The position numbers and the translations under genes were made by a program. Shown here one piece after another: positions 34,463 to 43,187 of a DNA stretch of 64,000 nt. The notes under the pieces were generated by a model, which saw only the letters and a list, made by a program, of their open reading frames with translations, was not told where the DNA came from and made no database searches. Source of the DNA: a virus; IMG/VR virus record IMGVR_UViG_3300023174_009221; one strand, given 5' to 3'. The number at the start of each line of letters is the position of its first letter. Position 1 is the first letter of the stretch.

Positions 34463-35803
34463 CTATTTAAATTTCTTTTTTAATTCATTTAAATCAGAGA
34501 CATACATATCCTTTGGTTCAGTTTCTTCCATTTTCTTAATCTCATCTTTCTTTTCAATAAAATCTGCTTTTAGTTTGTCATACACCTCTTTAGTTAGTGA
34601 GTAGATAGGCATTCTAAGTAGATAATCGTATGAATTGTCAATTAAATCAAGTTTCATTTCTTCAACACCTTTAATAATTTCTGATTTTGCGACATTATTT
34701 ACCTTAAGTTTTTGGTCAATAATGGCTTTGATAAACTTGCCTCTATTAGAGAGAATCTTTAACTCCTGGTTCATTTTATCCAGCAAATGTCTTTTTCTTT
34801 TATCGTAATAAGTAAGTCTAAATTTGACAAAGTATTCAATTATTTCCTCTGAAGTTTCAAATATTTTTAACTTACCTGATTCATCAAGAGTCGAAAAAAT
34901 TTCAGTAGAAGATTCTTCTAATTTTAAGATTTTGATTAACTTTTCATCATCTAAATTTTCTAAATCAGCTCGTGTAAATTTAATTACATAATCAATATTG
35001 TCTTTGCAATTGTCATCATAACTAACGATTATCTTATCATCAACTAATTTGTCTAAAATATCTTCATATTTTTCATAAGTCATTGACGGTGGTAGTTCTG
35101 AAATCTTAACAGTTGATGTATTGACCTTTTTAAAGTTTCCTCTAATTATCCATCTTTTTTTATTTTCAGGATCTTGAATATACTGACCGGTAAAATTTGA
35201 TAATTTTGGTTTTATGAAACCAATTTTTTTTTGGTCTAAAACTCTAAGACAAGCATCAATAATGTCTTTGATGTCTCTATTTAAGACGTTTGAAGCAAAC
35301 CCCACAGCAATTCCAGAAGATCCATTTAACAAAACAGTGGGTATTATTGGTAAAAAATAATGCGGCTCAATCACTTCACCTTCTTCTTCTTTAAAATTTA
35401 ATAGTTCAAAATCTTTATAAATTAGTCTAAAATTTTGAGATAGTTTAGTTCCGATATATCTCGCGGCACCTGGTTGCGGAGACCTAAGCGAACCAAATTG
35501 CCCCTCTTCTTCTAAAAGCGGCGCATTGTTTTTGAATTTTTGAGCCATTGTGATAATGGCATTAGAAAGACTTGAATCCCCGTGATGGTAAAAACAATCT
35601 GACGCGACTTTACCGGATAATTGAAAAACTTTAAGTGTTTTTTCGGTTCCGGTTTTCCAAATTTGATTTGCAACGTGAATTATCTTTCTTTGTGTCGGTT
35701 TAAATCCGTCTATCACTGATGGTATTGCCCTACCTTCAATAACATACATTGCAAACTCCTTATACTCCTGTGATAAAAATTCAGAAATGCTCTTTTCCAC
35801 CAT
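34463..35803 (-). CDS. DNA topoisomerase II medium subunit (T4 gp52 / GyrA-like)
   Basis: RAIPSVIDGFKPTQRK, YHHGDSS, GQFGS, catalytic AARY, NGSSGIAVGF. Confidence 0.92.
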   Translation of the reverse strand: MVEKSISEFLSQEYKEFAMYVIEGRAIPSVIDGFKPTQRKIIHVANQIWKTGTEKTLKVFQLSGKVASDCFYHHGDSSLSNAIITMAQKFKNNAPLLEEEGQFGSLRSPQPGAARYIGTKLSQNFRLIYKDFELLNFKEEEGEVIEPHYFLPIIPTVLLNGSSGIAVGFASNVLNRDIKDIIDACLRVLDQKKIGFIKPKLSNFTGQYIQDPENKKRWIIRGNFKKVNTSTVKISELPPSMTYEKYEDILDKLVDDKIIVSYDDNCKDNIDYVIKFTRADLENLDDEKLIKILKLEESSTEIFSTLDESGKLKIFETSEEIIEYFVKFRLTYYDKRKRHLLDKMNQELKILSNRGKFIKAIIDQKLKVNNVAKSEIIKGVEEMKLDLIDNSYDYLLRMPIYSLTKEVYDKLKADFIEKKDEIKKMEETEPKDMYVSDLNELKKKFK

Positions 35804-37410: not shown

Positions 37411-39156
37411 GTGAAAAAAATCGAAGACAAATATAAAGTTTTAGACCAAATAACACATATACTTTTAAGACCGCAGACATATGTAGGTTCTAATAAACCA
37501 AACACATCTATCAAAAATGTGATAGAAGAGGGTCAGGTAGTTCAAAGAGAAATTACATTTATTCCATCATTTGTTAAAATATTTGATGAAGTGGTTACAA
37601 ATTCAGTCGATGAAAATAAAAGAAATAAAAACCTAAATAAGATTGATATTTCAGTAGATGTTGAAAATAATACTATCTCAGTAAAAGATAACGGCGGAAT
37701 CCCAGTGGTAATTCATAAAGACCATAACCAGTATGTTCCAGAAGTTATTTTTGGAAATTTGATGTCAGGAAGTAATTACGATGACTCTGATGAAAGAACA
37801 GTTGCTGGATTGAATGGTCTGGGTGCTAAATTAACTAATGTTTTTTCACTGCAATTCACAATTTCAACTTGTGATGGTAAAAACCATTTTTTTCAGACTT
37901 TTTCAAATAATATGAGAGAAAGAAGTGTTCCAACTATTAAAAAGTCAAAAATAAACCACACCGAGATAAAGTATAAACCCGATTTATCACAATTTGGTAT
38001 AGATAAATTAGACGATGACCATTTTAAGATGATTGAAAAAAGAGTCTATGATTTAGCAGGAACAAATCCAGATATAAAATTCACATTTAATGAAACTAAA
38101 ATAAATTTCAACTCATTTGAAGATTACATCAAATTATACACACAAGACTATTTCTTTGAAGAAGCAAAAGATAAATCGTGGTCCGTTGGTATTGCACTTT
38201 CAGAAAATGGATTTTCGCATGTCAGTTTTGCTAACTCCACAGAAACTTATGATGGCGGAACACATGTTGATTACATTATCAATCAAATTATCACGGAGTT
38301 AAGAGCCTTCTTTACTAAAAGGCATAAAGTAGATGTTAAACCATCGGAGTTAAAACAACATATCTTTCTTTTTCTCAATTCAACTGTAATCAACCCCAGT
38401 TTTTCTTCACAGACAAAAGAAAAGTTAATCACAGAAGTTAAAGATTTTGGGTCTACTTTTGAGATTTCAAATAAATTAATTCAACAGATTCTAAAATCCG
38501 AAATTGTAAATTCGATACTCGATTGGATTCAACAAAAAAAATCAGCCGAAGACTCGAAATTACAAAGAGAATTAAATAAAAAACTATCAAAAATTAAAGT
38601 TGAAAAATTAATTGACGCTAAGGGAAAAGACCGTTGGAAGTGTCAAATCGGACTTTTTGAAGGGGATTGCCTACATGAGGATACTCTTATAAGAATTATA
38701 AGAGATGGTGATATTATAGATGAAAAAATTAAAAATATCAATACAGAGGATTTAGTCATTACTCACAATAATTCAATATCCAATATTTATTCTTTTACAA
38801 AAAAAATCAAAAAGAAAGCTGTTATAAAAACTAAGACTGAGGATGTTATTTGTAGCCATGAACATAAATGGTTCGTATATGATACCGAAAAAAATGAATT
38901 TTATTTTGAACTAACGAGTAAAATAAATAAGCAAAGACATAAGCTAGTAAAAAACTACTTAGCATTTACAGAATCTTTGATCGAAGTCAAAGAAAATGAT
39001 GGATATACATTAAAAATACTCTCTGGTGATATTATAGAAACTAATCCGGAACACAAGTTCGCTATATTCAACAAAGAATTAAATAAATTTGAAATGTTAG
39101 AATCTTTGAAAATAAAACCAGGTAAGCATTTTCTTATCAACACCTTCAAATTATAG
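37411..39156 (+). CDS. DNA topoisomerase II large subunit, N-terminal part (GHKL ATPase, 419 aa) fused to split-intein N-half
   Basis: HILLRPQTYVGS, DEVVTNSVD, DNGGIP, GLNGLGAKLTN, SQTKE, GLFEGD then CLHEDT. Confidence 0.92.
   Translation: MKKIEDKYKVLDQITHILLRPQTYVGSNKPNTSIKNVIEEGQVVQREITFIPSFVKIFDEVVTNSVDENKRNKNLNKIDISVDVENNTISVKDNGGIPVVIHKDHNQYVPEVIFGNLMSGSNYDDSDERTVAGLNGLGAKLTNVFSLQFTISTCDGKNHFFQTFSNNMRERSVPTIKKSKINHTEIKYKPDLSQFGIDKLDDDHFKMIEKRVYDLAGTNPDIKFTFNETKINFNSFEDYIKLYTQDYFFEEAKDKSWSVGIALSENGFSHVSFANSTETYDGGTHVDYIINQIITELRAFFTKRHKVDVKPSELKQHIFLFLNSTVINPSFSSQTKEKLITEVKDFGSTFEISNKLIQQILKSEIVNSILDWIQQKKSAEDSKLQRELNKKLSKIKVEKLIDAKGKDRWKCQIGLFEGDCLHEDTLIRIIRDGDIIDEKIKNINTEDLVITHNNSISNIYSFTKKIKKKAVIKTKTEDVICSHEHKWFVYDTEKNEFYFELTSKINKQRHKLVKNYLAFTESLIEVKENDGYTLKILSGDIIETNPEHKFAIFNKELNKFEMLESLKIKPGKHFLINTFKL
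38668..39153 (+). mobile_element. Split intein N-fragment (162 aa)
   Basis: Block A CLHEDTLI directly after EGD; block-B-like CSHEHKW and TNPEHKF; ends at a stop codon. Confidence 0.85.
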
Positions 39157-39199
39157 AATAACCTTCAAAATTACATATTTTACTTCTAATACATAGAGT

Positions 39200-40519
39200 A
39201 TGATATATAACTATGAATATAAAGGAAGGATTTACAATTTCAATTGTAAAAGATTAGACAGAATAGATTCATCACTAAAAGTATCAATAAGAAGAAAACT
39301 CAAAATCCCGATAGGAAAATATTTGGATTATCTGGGTTTTGATATAGAAAAGTGTAGAGTTTGTAATTCTGGTTACCCACCTGTAAATATACATGTTGAA
39401 ATAAACAACAAAAGTCAAATTAAAATAAAAGGATTTTCATATAAAAAACTAATTTATTGCTATGGAGAAAATGAACATTGTCAAGGTATAAAAATGAATC
39501 CCAATTCATTTGAATTCATATCATTGGTTAATAAAGTATCATTGGAAGAGGCAAAAATATTACTAAAAAATAATAATGGAAGTCCATTCTATAAAGAAAA
39601 TCATAATTCTGAAAATTCTTACAAAGAGTTTCAATCTAGATCCGTTGATAACTATATAAAAAAATATGGAGAGGAATTAGGTAGACAAAAATATTTAGAA
39701 CACATATCTAAAATTTCTTTATCAAATAGTAGAGAAGGATATATACAAAAATATGGAGAAGATTTGGGAATTAAATTATTCCAGGAAGTATCAAATAAAA
39801 AAGATTCAATGTCTTTGGATTTCTTCATTAAGAAAAATAATGGTGATTTAGAATCAGCAATAACCGAATATGAATATAGATTATCTAAAGTAAATAACTC
39901 AATTAGTAACTTGATTAATAAATTTGGTGAAAAAGTAGGATTGGAAAAACATAAAATAAGAGTTGATAAGTATAGAAAAACCTTTGACTCAAATCCACAA
40001 AAAGAAAAAATAAATAAATCACGAGCTATTACAATTGATAATTTATTGAAAAAATACGGCGATATTGAAACCGCAACTAAAATTTATCACCAATGGTTAG
40101 AAAAAGTAACAGTTCCTTTTTGTGTCGCATCCAAAGAGTCATTAAAGATTTTTAATCCACTTATAGATATTTTAACCAGTAAATTAAATATAGATATTTC
40201 TGATATCTGTATAGGGAAACCAAATAAACAAGAATATTTCATAAAAGATAGTGATAAAATTTATTTCTATGATTTTACAATAAGAAGTAAGAAAATCATC
40301 ATTGAATACAATGGAGTTTTGTATCATCCAAAAAATGAAAATTCAACTTGGACAAATCCATTTGATATAAGTATTACTCCTGAAATAGCGTTTAAAAAAC
40401 AACAAGATAAAATAGAAACGGCAAAAGCAAATGGATTCAGGGTTCTAGAGATTTGGTCAGATGAGGAAAATAAATTAGAGAAGTGTTTGGAATTTATAAA
40501 AAATAATATTGATAAATGA
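39200..40519 (+). mobile_element. Free-standing Vsr/DUF559-like homing endonuclease between the intein halves
   Basis: Repeated KYGE.LG units; C-terminal YDF...IIEYNGVLYH...K...A..NGFRVLEIWS. Confidence 0.75.
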
Positions 40520-40650
40520 TAGTAGAGAATTTTTTAGAACTTATAGATATAGATTCAATTGATATCACAAATGAGTACGTGAACATGGTTGACATATCAG
40601 TTGATGTTGATCAATCTTTTCTGTTAAGCAATGGTCTCGTATCTCATAAT
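40516..40650 (+). mobile_element. Split intein C-fragment (45 aa)
   Basis: Block F MVDISVDVDQSFLL; block G NGLVSHN followed by Ser+1. Confidence 0.88.
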
Positions 40651-41238
40651 TCGGCAATTTCGGCTTTCAGAAAATACAGAACACCAGAAACAATGGGTGC
40701 TTTTGCACTTAAAGGAAAATTCGTGAATGTTTCAGAGATGACCAATCAAAAACTGGTCGGAAATGACGAAGTGGTTAATTTAATGGCATCGATTGGATTA
40801 AAACTGGGCCAAGAAATTACTCTCAAAGACCTTAGATACGGTAGAATTCTTTTTTACGTTGACGCTGACGCAGACGGTAACTCGATTGCTGGTCTGCTCA
40901 TTAACTTTTTTTACAAATATTGGCCGGATATGTTTGATAGAAAAATGATTTGGAAAGTAGAAACTCCAATTGTAGTTGCTATACCAAAATCAAAAACCAA
41001 AAAGAAATTACTTTTTTATACCCAAGCAGAGTATAATGAATGGGAAAAAACAAATGATGTCAAACAGTGGGAAATAAAGTATAAAAAAGGTTTAGCGGCA
41101 CTTGTCGATGACGAGTATCAAGATATTATTAATAACCCAAAAATGACCTTAATTACAAAAGACGAGGCTACGAAGCTATCACTTGAAATTTGGTTTGGAA
41201 AAAACTCAGATTTAAGAAAAGTAGAACTATTGAAATAG
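40516..41238 (+). CDS. Split-intein C-half fused to the topoisomerase II TOPRIM part (gp60-like, 195 aa)
   Basis: ...NGLVSHN|SAISAF; ALKGK, DADADG, TPIV, YKKGLA. Confidence 0.9.
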   Translation: MIVENFLELIDIDSIDITNEYVNMVDISVDVDQSFLLSNGLVSHNSAISAFRKYRTPETMGAFALKGKFVNVSEMTNQKLVGNDEVVNLMASIGLKLGQEITLKDLRYGRILFYVDADADGNSIAGLLINFFYKYWPDMFDRKMIWKVETPIVVAIPKSKTKKKLLFYTQAEYNEWEKTNDVKQWEIKYKKGLAALVDDEYQDIINNPKMTLITKDEATKLSLEIWFGKNSDLRKVELLK

Positions 41239-41261: not shown

Positions 41262-42359
41262 ATGATTAAAAAATGGTCAAATTTTATAAACGAAAATAAA
41301 CTTTATCTTTTTAACAGAAAGTTTAGAATATCATCTCTTATTGAATCCAAGATATATCCACTTAAACTTGTCAAAAAATGGATGTCTGAGTATGATTGTG
41401 ACCAGTTTGCACATTGTGTATTGGTTTCTAAATCTCCGATTACAAAAACCACAGATGTTAAGTATTTAATACAAACCACTTCAAGAGATATTTCAAATGT
41501 TAATTATTTTAACACATCGACAAAAAAATATGACGGGTATTTACCAGAAGATTCAAAACTAATAATCAATGAACAGGAGGTATTTCTTTATATTTTCAAA
41601 AAGAATTCGAATTTACAAAATAGGGCAAGACAAATACACGGTTTTATCTATGAAGGAGAAGTAAAAAATCTTAACGGTTTGGCTAAATTGAAAAAAACAG
41701 ATAAGTGGGACGCCGAAGGTGGTCTTGATAAATCCTATCTAACCAGAAGAATCGAGCAACAAAAGTCGGTAGAATTTTTCAATGGGTCAACCTATTTAGA
41801 CCTTGTTAAAATTGATGAGATATCGGGGTTCAAAGAATGTAACTGGGAATTAGTTCCACAAGGGTTTAAAGACCACCATAACTGGAGCATTAAATGCATG
41901 GCAAACAGGACCGATATCGAATTTGGAGACTTCAAAAGAATTTCAGGTTTAGAAAAAGATGGAAAAAAGATTAAAATTTTACATTCAAATGAACAAAATT
42001 TTATGATAGCAATTGGATTTCATGACGGGTCAGCAGATAAAAAAGTTTTAGTAGAGTATATAATCTGTATGCCGGTATCGATTTGGAAAACATTTCTTCC
42101 TAACTTACAGACTAAATTAGAGGATATCACAATGATGTATAATGATTTAGATCAACACAAATTAGTAGGTGAAAGAACCGAAGAATCTGAAAAAAATTGG
42201 CAATACTACACTTCAATCTATAAAGGAATATGCAGTGATACTCCAATTAAATTAAGATTTAAAAGAGACAGCAAAGGTCAACTTAGAATACAGTGCGCTA
42301 TGTCATTTACTAACTTTACTAACTTGGTTCTTAAATTACCCCACATCAGAATCGGATAA
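41262..42359 (+). CDS. Putative restriction-endonuclease-like protein with capsid-targeting-like N-terminus
   Basis: MIKKWSNFINEN; RQIHGFIYE...KWDA...WSIK; adjacent methyltransferase. Confidence 0.5.
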   Translation: MIKKWSNFINENKLYLFNRKFRISSLIESKIYPLKLVKKWMSEYDCDQFAHCVLVSKSPITKTTDVKYLIQTTSRDISNVNYFNTSTKKYDGYLPEDSKLIINEQEVFLYIFKKNSNLQNRARQIHGFIYEGEVKNLNGLAKLKKTDKWDAEGGLDKSYLTRRIEQQKSVEFFNGSTYLDLVKIDEISGFKECNWELVPQGFKDHHNWSIKCMANRTDIEFGDFKRISGLEKDGKKIKILHSNEQNFMIAIGFHDGSADKKVLVEYIICMPVSIWKTFLPNLQTKLEDITMMYNDLDQHKLVGERTEESEKNWQYYTSIYKGICSDTPIKLRFKRDSKGQLRIQCAMSFTNFTNLVLKLPHIRIG

Positions 42360-42389
42360 ACTTTTTGTTAAATTGTATCTAAAAAGTCT

Positions 42390-43187
42390 ATGAAGAGAAT
42401 TCTAAAATCCGACTTAGATAAATTCTACACCAAGCAACAATTAGTCGAAGATTTAGTGGCTAAGTTTGATTTTAGTAAATATGATTTAGTCATTGATCCG
42501 TGTTGTGGAGCGGGTGCTTTTTACAAAAATATACCACACCACAATAAAATTGCAATTGATATCTTACCACACATAGATGGTGTTATTACAGCAGATTTTT
42601 TACAATGGGATTATAAAATGATTCTACAAGACCCCAGTAAAGTTTTAGTGTTATCAAATCCACCTTTTGGGAAACAGGGGTCAGTTGCTATGAATTTCAT
42701 TAAAAGGGCTAGTCTATTTTCAGATACCATTGCTTTTATCTTACCGATAAGTTTTGCAAAACCAAGTCAGAAAAATAAAATTCCAGAATATTTTCATTTA
42801 GAGTATGAAGAAGTATTACCTGAAGATTCGTATTTATTAGATGGGGCTTCATACCAGGTTAAATGTGTTTTTCAAATCTGGAAGAAATCCCACAAAAAAA
42901 GAGATAAGATTTTAGAAGATTCTAATATTGGATTTAGATATACAAAAGATAAAACAATTGCTGACTTAGCAGTAAGAAGAGTCGGTGTTTATGCCGGTAG
43001 GGCATTTACAGACTTAAATAAATCAGAACAATCTCACTACTTTTTGATCTTTGATGATAAATCTAAAATTAGAACGGTGATGGACTCTTTACATCAACAA
43101 AAGTGGTCTGATTTAGCCATTGGACCAAGATCTATATCAAAAGGTGAATTAAACAAATCTATAAATACCATACTAAATGATAAATAA
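42390..43187 (+). CDS. N6-adenine DNA methyltransferase
   Basis: DKFYT, IDPCCGAGAF, SNPPFG, AFILP. Confidence 0.85.
   Translation: MKRILKSDLDKFYTKQQLVEDLVAKFDFSKYDLVIDPCCGAGAFYKNIPHHNKIAIDILPHIDGVITADFLQWDYKMILQDPSKVLVLSNPPFGKQGSVAMNFIKRASLFSDTIAFILPISFAKPSQKNKIPEYFHLEYEEVLPEDSYLLDGASYQVKCVFQIWKKSHKKRDKILEDSNIGFRYTKDKTIADLAVRRVGVYAGRAFTDLNKSEQSHYFLIFDDKSKIRTVMDSLHQQKWSDLAIGPRSISKGELNKSINTILNDK

Follow-up and report, generated by a model that had tools for sequence, protein, structure and literature searches.

A topoisomerase II large-subunit gene of very large phages, apparently fractured by a split intein that carries a duplicated segment

RESULTS AND DISCUSSION

A large-subunit gene in two parts

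Within the window, a 64,000-nucleotide stretch of the IMG/VR virus record IMGVR_UViG_3300023174_009221, the gene for the large subunit of a type II topoisomerase is distributed over two open reading frames (ORFs) that are separated by a third, and at the break each coding part is joined to what appears to be one half of an intein. We regard this arrangement, with a probability of about 85% and judging from sequence, as a “fractured gene” in which a class 1 split intein lies between residues D419 and S420 and the enzyme is joined by protein trans-splicing.

All three ORFs lie on the plus strand. ORF1 (37411-39156) encodes 581 amino acids (aa), of which residues 1-419 (37411-38667) constitute the N-terminal part of the large subunit (the N-extein) and comprise the GHKL ATPase, the transducer and the first Toprim motif, ending at E417-G418-D419. 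Directly after ...FEGD, residue 420 is a cysteine (codon start, 38668) that opens the N-terminal intein fragment (IntN; ORF1 residues 420-581, 162 aa). The canonical core of IntN (intein residues 1-102; 38668-38973) holds Cys1, the TH of block N2 and the S63-x-x-H66 of block B, and it is followed by a C-terminal extension (intein residues 103-162; 38974-39153) that is a tandem duplicate of the block-B unit. The ORF1 stop codon (39154-39156) and a 43-nt spacer, together 39154-39199, lead to ORF2 (39200-40519), a free-standing gene for a homing endonuclease (439 aa) that reads in frame +1 with respect to ORF1 and whose end overlaps the start of ORF3 (40516-41238; 240 aa) by the 4 nt ATGA. Residues 1-45 of ORF3 form the C-terminal intein fragment (IntC; 40516-40650), with block F (D26 and F35) and block G (H44-N45), and end in ...SHN; from residue 46, the host protein resumes as SAISAF. 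This C-extein (40651-41238, stop codon included) supplies large-subunit residues 420-614, 195 residues that start with Ser+1-Ala and continue through the Toprim DxD motif and TOPRIM_C.

The complete insert occupies 1983 bp (38668-40650), its G+C content is 0.24-0.27 versus 0.29-0.37 in the exteins, and 72 stop codons interrupt the common frame of ORF1 and ORF3 between the two. A previous reading made from the letters alone (hereafter, the sequence-only reading) had described the large subunit as running to ...GLFEGD and switching to an intein at Cys 38668, with a stop at 39156, a 439-aa endonuclease ORF in another frame, and an ORF at 40516 that begins with a 45-aa IntC and resumes with SAISAF; all of its positions and lengths were confirmed.

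Extein continuity

The two coding parts add up to one enzyme. Pfam recognizes HATPase_c and DNA_gyraseB in ORF1 and Toprim and TOPRIM_C in ORF3, and the T4-type order of large-subunit domains is complete (GHKL ATPase, transducer, Toprim with its E-G-D and DxD motifs, and TOPRIM_C). Against phrog_543 (topoisomerase II large subunit), ORF1 residues 2-419 align with profile positions 22-445 and ORF3 residues 45-235 with positions 445-633; likewise, the match of ORF1 to TIGR01059 gyrB (NCBIfam) extends to profile position 424, and that of ORF3 begins at position 423.

An uninterrupted homolog of 614 aa is encoded by LR745206, a 635-kb uncultured phage. The N-extein is 65% identical to its residues 3-419 and the C-extein 76% identical to its residues 420-614, and the exteins abut on this intein-free protein with neither gap nor overlap at residues 419/420. 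Because the alignment is gapless and nonoverlapping, the sum of 419 and 195 residues to 614 is exact, and the earlier expectation that joining the exteins restores the TOPRIM EGD-SA motif in a protein of this length was borne out. The insertion is in frame, and its removal restores this conserved host motif.

Intein halves

Taken together, IntN and IntC contain what defines a class 1 intein: Cys at position 1, (T/S)xxH in block B, Asp in block F, His-Asn in block G, and Ser at position +1. Cys1 and the block-B His66 (within S-H-E-H) are invariant across 37 diverse homologs on the N side, the most distant at 23% identity, as are D26, F35, H44 and N45 of IntC, plus Ser+1-Ala+2 (S46 and A47 of ORF3), across 45 C-side homologs.

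A plain Pfam scan of the three whole ORFs returned no intein or nuclease family at an E value of ≤0.1, and assignment of both the intein and the nuclease needed sub-sequences, alignments and structures. When the PDB was searched with the single IntN sequence, the gp41-1 intein was the sole match (E value, 0.0045), and the IntN family profile matched the same intein with an E value of 8.5e-6. The C-terminal half scored 17.4 to 20.7 bits with TIGR01443 intein_Cterm, above the cutoff of 15.6, and the Pfam family Intein_splicing (PF14890) matched 31 of the 37 IntN homologs at an E value of ≤0.1.

The AlphaFold2 model of IntN (mean predicted local distance difference test score [pLDDT], 86) yielded no match at an E value of ≤0.001 when used alone in Foldseek, and VIA-align of the Foldseek candidates gave clear structural matches, the top 50 rows of the superposition all being Hint or intein structures. 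Residues 1-100 of IntN align structurally with the N-intein of Npu DnaE (4lx3_A), at a Z score of 10.1 and a root mean square deviation (rmsd) of 2.4 Å over 90 residues, which locates the break at the canonical endonuclease-insertion point.

The two halves are also predicted to pair. A complex of IntN (ORF1 residues 414-581) and IntC (ORF3 residues 1-56) received an interface score (ipSAE) of 0.68, against 0.00 for the best control; in the benchmark of this score, 58 of 80 solved complexes attain its mark, as do 2 of 110 mismatched pairs, and, since complexes of split inteins have already been solved, the value expresses likeness and is no proof of binding. At least 93% of the contacts were common to the runs, and partner pLDDT was at least 72. 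The tightest predicted contacts are those of ORF1 residues 467-474 with IntC residues 12-21, and the predicted contacts of IntC lie almost wholly in the IntN core (intein residues 1-102), so that in these models IntC completes the Hint fold with IntN. Residues 44-56 of IntN carry a net charge of +7, and IntC, which is without a basic residue, carries a net charge of -9 (IntC family median, -10); known natural split inteins likewise set a basic IntN strand against an acidic IntC.

The free-standing endonuclease

ORF2 was modeled with high confidence (AlphaFold2 mean pLDDT, 91) and starts with a beta/Cys-rich domain (residues 1-83), continues with helical repeats and ends in a Vsr-like nuclease domain of the EDxHD type (residues 311-438; 40130-40513). 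Foldseek returned no match at an E value of ≤0.001 for the whole nuclease model. Superposition of residues 311-438 by VIA-align yielded Z scores of 9.8 with I-Bth0305I (3r3p_A; rmsd of 2.7 Å, 93/97 residues), 9.2 with the DUF559 protein 3hrl, and 8.6 and 8.1 with Vsr (1cw0 and 1vsr, respectively). Profile matches to the PDB point to the same proteins and are weak (E values of 0.019 for 3r3p and 0.13 to 0.18 for Vsr), and DUF559 is matched by 25 of 39 nuclease homologs. Among the nuclease relatives, E345, D358, E369, H376 and K404 do not vary; position 401, the fifth of the EDxHD motif, is occupied by Gln in ORF2 and 23 of 44 relatives and by Asp in 19.

The N-terminal 250 residues of ORF2 are 38% identical (E value, 5e-31) to an ORF at the same site in the phage sequence LR756500, whose C-terminal domain is different, HNH-like by eye and matched by no Pfam family. 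This combination of a shared N terminus with a different C terminus suggests that the DNA-binding part is tied to the site and that the nuclease domain has been exchanged. Within the 165-kb record to which the window belongs, there is no second copy of IntN or of the nuclease family. The interpretation of the locus as IntN, Vsr-like free-standing endonuclease and IntC, as proposed in the sequence-only reading, holds on several lines at once: the invariant splicing residues, the profile match to gp41-1, the Npu DnaE fold, the predicted pairing of the halves, and the match of the nuclease to I-Bth0305I and Vsr.

Distribution and states among relatives

A word-indexed search recovered 180 proteins that carry an IntN of the ORF1 type, and an exhaustive HMMER search of 1.84 billion representative proteins produced 92 IntN clusters; a further 113 proteins start with IntC, and 249 are related to the nuclease. 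In nearly all full-length members, the IntN match runs to the last residue, and the protein ends at ~581 aa. Because their contigs reach 566 to 770 kb, the carriers are very large phages.

The arrangement of two co-oriented ORFs, the first ending in IntN and the second starting with IntC, also occurs in the related loci L001, L004 and L006-L018. The split is accompanied by a Vsr-like nuclease gene in the window and in L004, L007, L009, L010, L012-L014, L016 and L017, by another nuclease ORF in L001 and L015, and by no nuclease ORF in L006, L008, L011 and L018, in which the gaps are 44 to 315 nt. Remnants of the 3' end of the nuclease gene persist in L008 and L011 (~110 to 120 nt) and in L006 (~20 nt), which indicates that in these three loci the fracture came first and loss of the nuclease later, with the split intein surviving it.

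Well over 100 independent assemblies (JGI, ENA, Logan, NCBI and Tara) share the stop position and the lengths, and the split is real and old. Median nonsynonymous divergence (dN) is 0.19 in the IntN core, 0.13 in IntC and 0.30 in the exteins, i.e., the intein proteins have diverged no more than their host enzyme. The median ratio of dN to synonymous divergence (dS) is 0.10 to 0.29 for the exteins, both intein halves and the nuclease, values that are rough because dS is saturated.

Two relatives present other configurations of the element. P0389 (676 aa) contains the sole contiguous mini-intein that we found at the EGx|SA site, and it lacks the block-B duplicate; its sequence looks scrambled past the start of the C-extein, and a chimeric contig end is possible. 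In P0169 (306 aa), the C-terminal part of the nuclease is in frame with IntC, and this protein is the kind of intermediate that the Dassa model posits for re-forming a contiguous, nuclease-bearing intein. The relatives span nearly the whole life cycle of the element at a single site: the empty allele, a contiguous mini-intein, the split with a Vsr-like nuclease, the split with a nuclease domain of another kind, remnants of the nuclease, and the split alone.

The duplicated block-B unit

IntN residues 114-157 (39007-39138) repeat residues 52-94 (38821-38949), the block-B unit; alignment of the two sub-alignments by hhalign gave a probability of 98.6% and an E value of 1.2e-15, with 30% identity over 43 columns. 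IntN is 162 aa long in 99 of 126 full-length homologs, ~60 residues above the canonical fragment, and the extension is retained, length included, even in relatives at 23 to 43% identity, with a dN/dS of about 0.25 (dS being saturated). In the AlphaFold2 model, the extension is confidently folded, falls beyond the stretch that solved inteins match, and puts just three residues into the interface predicted with IntC. The contiguous relative P0389 lacks it, as do the second-site IntN of P0125 and the gp52-site IntN of LR756500.

This structural feature has a possible role in the folding of the intein or in the control of splicing. We suggest, tentatively and with less than even odds by a wide measure, that it is a functional addition. 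It might act as a substitute for IntC from within the chain, filling or covering the groove that binds IntC, so that the 581-residue precursor stays soluble or inactive up to the moment of displacement by IntC, or it might be a docking module that orders assembly in those relatives with two or three split inteins.

Weighing the explanations

The anatomy, homology, conservation and population-level states observed here would be accounted for as follows. A Vsr-like free-standing nuclease gene would break the intein at the canonical endonuclease-insertion point, and two polypeptides would be made, one consisting of the N-extein and IntN (581 aa) and the other of IntC and the C-extein (240 aa). 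The very acidic IntC would pair with the lysine-rich IntN strand, completing the Hint fold, and trans-splicing by Cys1, His66, Asp26, His44-Asn45 and Ser+1 would yield a 614-residue subunit with its catalytic motif restored. The endonuclease would take no part in splicing and would act as a mobility module that presumably cuts empty alleles; some lineages are losing it and retain the split intein.

Several points weigh against this explanation. The Pfam family Intein_splicing scores only 18.5 bits on the IntN of the window (gathering score, 35.8); block B carries Ser, Thr being commoner; and the saturation of dS limits what the dN/dS values can say. The 60-residue duplicated extension has no known counterpart in characterized split inteins. 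Moreover, residue -1 is variable in divergent relatives (N, F, E, S, A, Q or L), and the insertion site is therefore less constrained than the phrase “catalytic EGD” suggests.

This last point would also suit an enzyme of three chains that keeps its intein, in which the intein halves merely tether the fragments noncovalently, in the manner of T4 gp39/gp60 or the Aeh1 NrdA fragments. The same subunit does tolerate a noncovalent split ~27 residues away in T4, and the predicted interface of IntN and IntC would bind tightly whether or not splicing follows. A mere dimerization module, however, needs none of the residues that are invariant here over deep divergence (Cys1, the block-B His, the block-F Asp, His-Asn and Ser+1), and an unspliced Hint domain of ~200 residues would sit within the EGD-SA catalytic loop; we consider tethering improbable. 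Still less credible is an origin of the split in assembly or sequencing error, or in decay, such that the true gene has a contiguous intein with an in-frame endonuclease or the topoisomerase is dead. The contiguous mini-intein of P0389 and the in-frame nuclease C terminus of P0169 lend this idea some color, but it is already largely refuted by the recurrence of one stop position and one set of lengths in so many independent assemblies, by the placement of the nuclease in another frame with 72 in-frame stops separating the halves, and by the low protein-level divergence (dN/dS as given above, with dS saturated).

Least probable of all is that the halves are joined at the level of RNA, by intron splicing, or during translation, by a ribosomal bypass like that of T4 gene 60. 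A near-repeat of the last four ORF1 codons, situated 8 nt past the stop, superficially recalls take-off and landing sites; the intein halves, on the other hand, are conserved as protein with their catalytic residues, which an excised RNA would not require. An Rfam scan of the region detected no group I intron or other family, only a chance snoRNA match, and a hairpin over the nuclease start is not significant (minimum free energy of -5.8 kcal/mol; z score of -0.56). The lack of an Rfam intron and of significant RNA structure disfavors joining of the RNA. Promoter-like and terminator-like sites in the region are no commoner than in shuffled sequences. Of the explanations considered, protein trans-splicing by a class 1 split intein is the one that we favor.

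Relation to known systems

The layout is of a known kind. Fractured genes with split inteins were described from the GOS metagenomes (Dassa et al. 2009; PMC2677866) for gp41-1 to -8, NrdJ-1, IMPDH-1, NrdA, DnaE, ligase and terminase, and this list includes the gp41, NrdJ and IMPDH cases that the sequence-only reading had cited for the order IntN, Vsr-like endonuclease and IntC. Shared with those loci are the co-oriented sequence of N-half plus IntN, free-standing Vsr-like gene, and IntC plus C-half, the canonical break point, and a phage replication enzyme as the host. The 3' end of the nuclease gene overlaps the start of IntC in both, by 4 nt here and by 6 to 69 nt there. The window differs in its topoisomerase II host and in having no significant hairpin upstream of the nuclease gene; an upstream hairpin or late-promoter element is present in 15 of the Dassa loci and is not defining for all of them (PMC2677866).

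The sequence-only reading had also suggested that no split intein is described in a type II topoisomerase and that the present pair may thus be new and possibly orthogonal. The former is nearly right: topoisomerase is not among the eight enzyme types of the 2009 survey (PMC2677866), but one sentence of a 2022 preprint (bioRxiv 10.1101/2022.08.31.505936) mentions a metagenomic phage Topo2L, “MGS5,” split as Hint-VSR-HintC. MGS5 agrees with the locus of the window in host protein and in three-part organization, known from that sentence and without a site; the subject of the preprint is the MobA bypass cassette, and it gives no residues, distribution or analysis. Topoisomerase II as the host of a split intein is, accordingly, not wholly unreported, and the novelty lies in the host protein, as characterized here, and in the duplicated intein segment. 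With it, the enzymes that apparently depend on protein trans-splicing come to include type II topoisomerase, in very large phages, and this state is common in the lineage, in which more than 180 metagenomic protein clusters bear such an IntN.

By sequence, the nearest solved intein is gp41-1, at 23 to 24% identity in superposition. The gp41-1 IntN has 88 aa and no block-B duplicate, whereas IntN here has 162 aa and a duplicated block-B unit. The best structural matches are the Npu and Ssp DnaE inteins (4lx3_A and 4qfq_A; Z scores of about 10, rmsd of 2.4 to 2.8 Å), which have the same break point, a basic IntN strand and an acidic IntC. They are only 13 to 15% identical, and their halves are encoded at distant loci without an endonuclease gene; DnaE inteins have Cys at the +1 position, and the intein of the window has Ser.

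As the sequence-only reading correctly noted, T4 splits the same subunit without an intein (genes 39 and 60). There, too, the subunit is divided within Toprim by a homing-endonuclease element, the MobA HNH cassette, which extends the upstream ORF by a C-terminal tail and gives the downstream ORF an N-terminal one; in contrast to the window, the T4 chains stay separate, a 50-nt ribosomal bypass is needed, and the MobA site lies ~27 residues farther downstream (phrog_7229 starts at ORF3 residue 76). The endonuclease itself resembles I-Bth0305I, the EDxHD prototype (PMC3239194; 3r3p), in its nuclease fold, its conserved Glu, Asp, acidic and His residues, and its N-terminal DNA-binding region. It differs in that I-Bth0305I is intron encoded and in that ORF2 has Gln as the fifth motif residue, a Cys-rich beta domain with helical repeats, and no recognized NUMODs. 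Finally, cellular GyrB inteins (e.g., Ssp GyrB) reside in the homologous subunit and, unlike the intein described here, are contiguous and cis-splicing. The C-extein of the Ssp GyrB intein presumably begins with SAGG, and its insertion would then be at EGD|SA, the homologous site; a literature search for inteins at the EGDSA motif and for insertion sites of GyrB inteins found nothing usable.

Other intein sites in the holoenzyme and the record

In P0125, P0190 and P0200, the C-extein is broken again at the Toprim DAD|C site. The piece that follows IntC in these three proteins and in P0233 is ~210 aa long and ends in a second N-intein after Toprim DAD; the large subunit would therefore be made from three polypeptides with two different split inteins. 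The T4 MobA split falls between the EGD|SA and DAD|C intein sites, and such a number of insertions marks the Toprim region as a repeated target of endonuclease-linked elements.

The partner medium subunit (gp52/GyrA-like) is another host. An intein at its HHGD|S site is split and accompanied by a Vsr-like nuclease gene in LR756500 (L001, 7407-10129), split in a 566-kb JGI contig (L006, 10051-12264), and contiguous, in a protein of 588 aa, in a Logan contig (L004, 1844-3610). In the window, both the second Toprim motif and the gp52-like gene are uninterrupted; the latter, on the minus strand at 34463-35803, matches Pfam DNA_topoisoIV (E value, 4.8e-93) and phrog_551. Where two or three split inteins occur in one holoenzyme, as in some relatives, they must not cross-react, and such co-resident inteins would for this reason offer protein engineers a natural supply of candidate orthogonal pairs. 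In three of the more distant loci (L012, 6735-8486; L013, 6722-8839; L016, 6718-8868), the IntC-bearing ORF is 583 to 716 aa long and appears to fuse the C-terminal part of the large subunit to the gp52-like subunit.

The record that contains the window has a second intein (G000:C1:61806-62810; L019, 1177-3123), which is contiguous, with a large central insert, and lies within a 648-aa ORF. Its borders read ...HFK|C ... HN|C..., and it scores 37.1 bits with PF14890, above the cutoff.

Spacer and neighboring genes

The near-repeat in the spacer (39161-39173) copies the last four codons of ORF1 (ACC TTC AAA TTA; 39142-39153). It is also found after the stop in L004 (7731-7758), which has the nuclease gene, and in L006 (7731-7760), which is without it, and it may be a scar of the 5' junction of the cassette or a signal. 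Ribosomal bypass by way of this repeat was considered and rejected, the frame closing 8 codons after it.

Downstream of ORF3, the interval 41262-43187 contains a 365-aa ORF without a family match and, after it, one of 265 aa that weakly matches N6-methylases (PF02384; E value, 0.0067).

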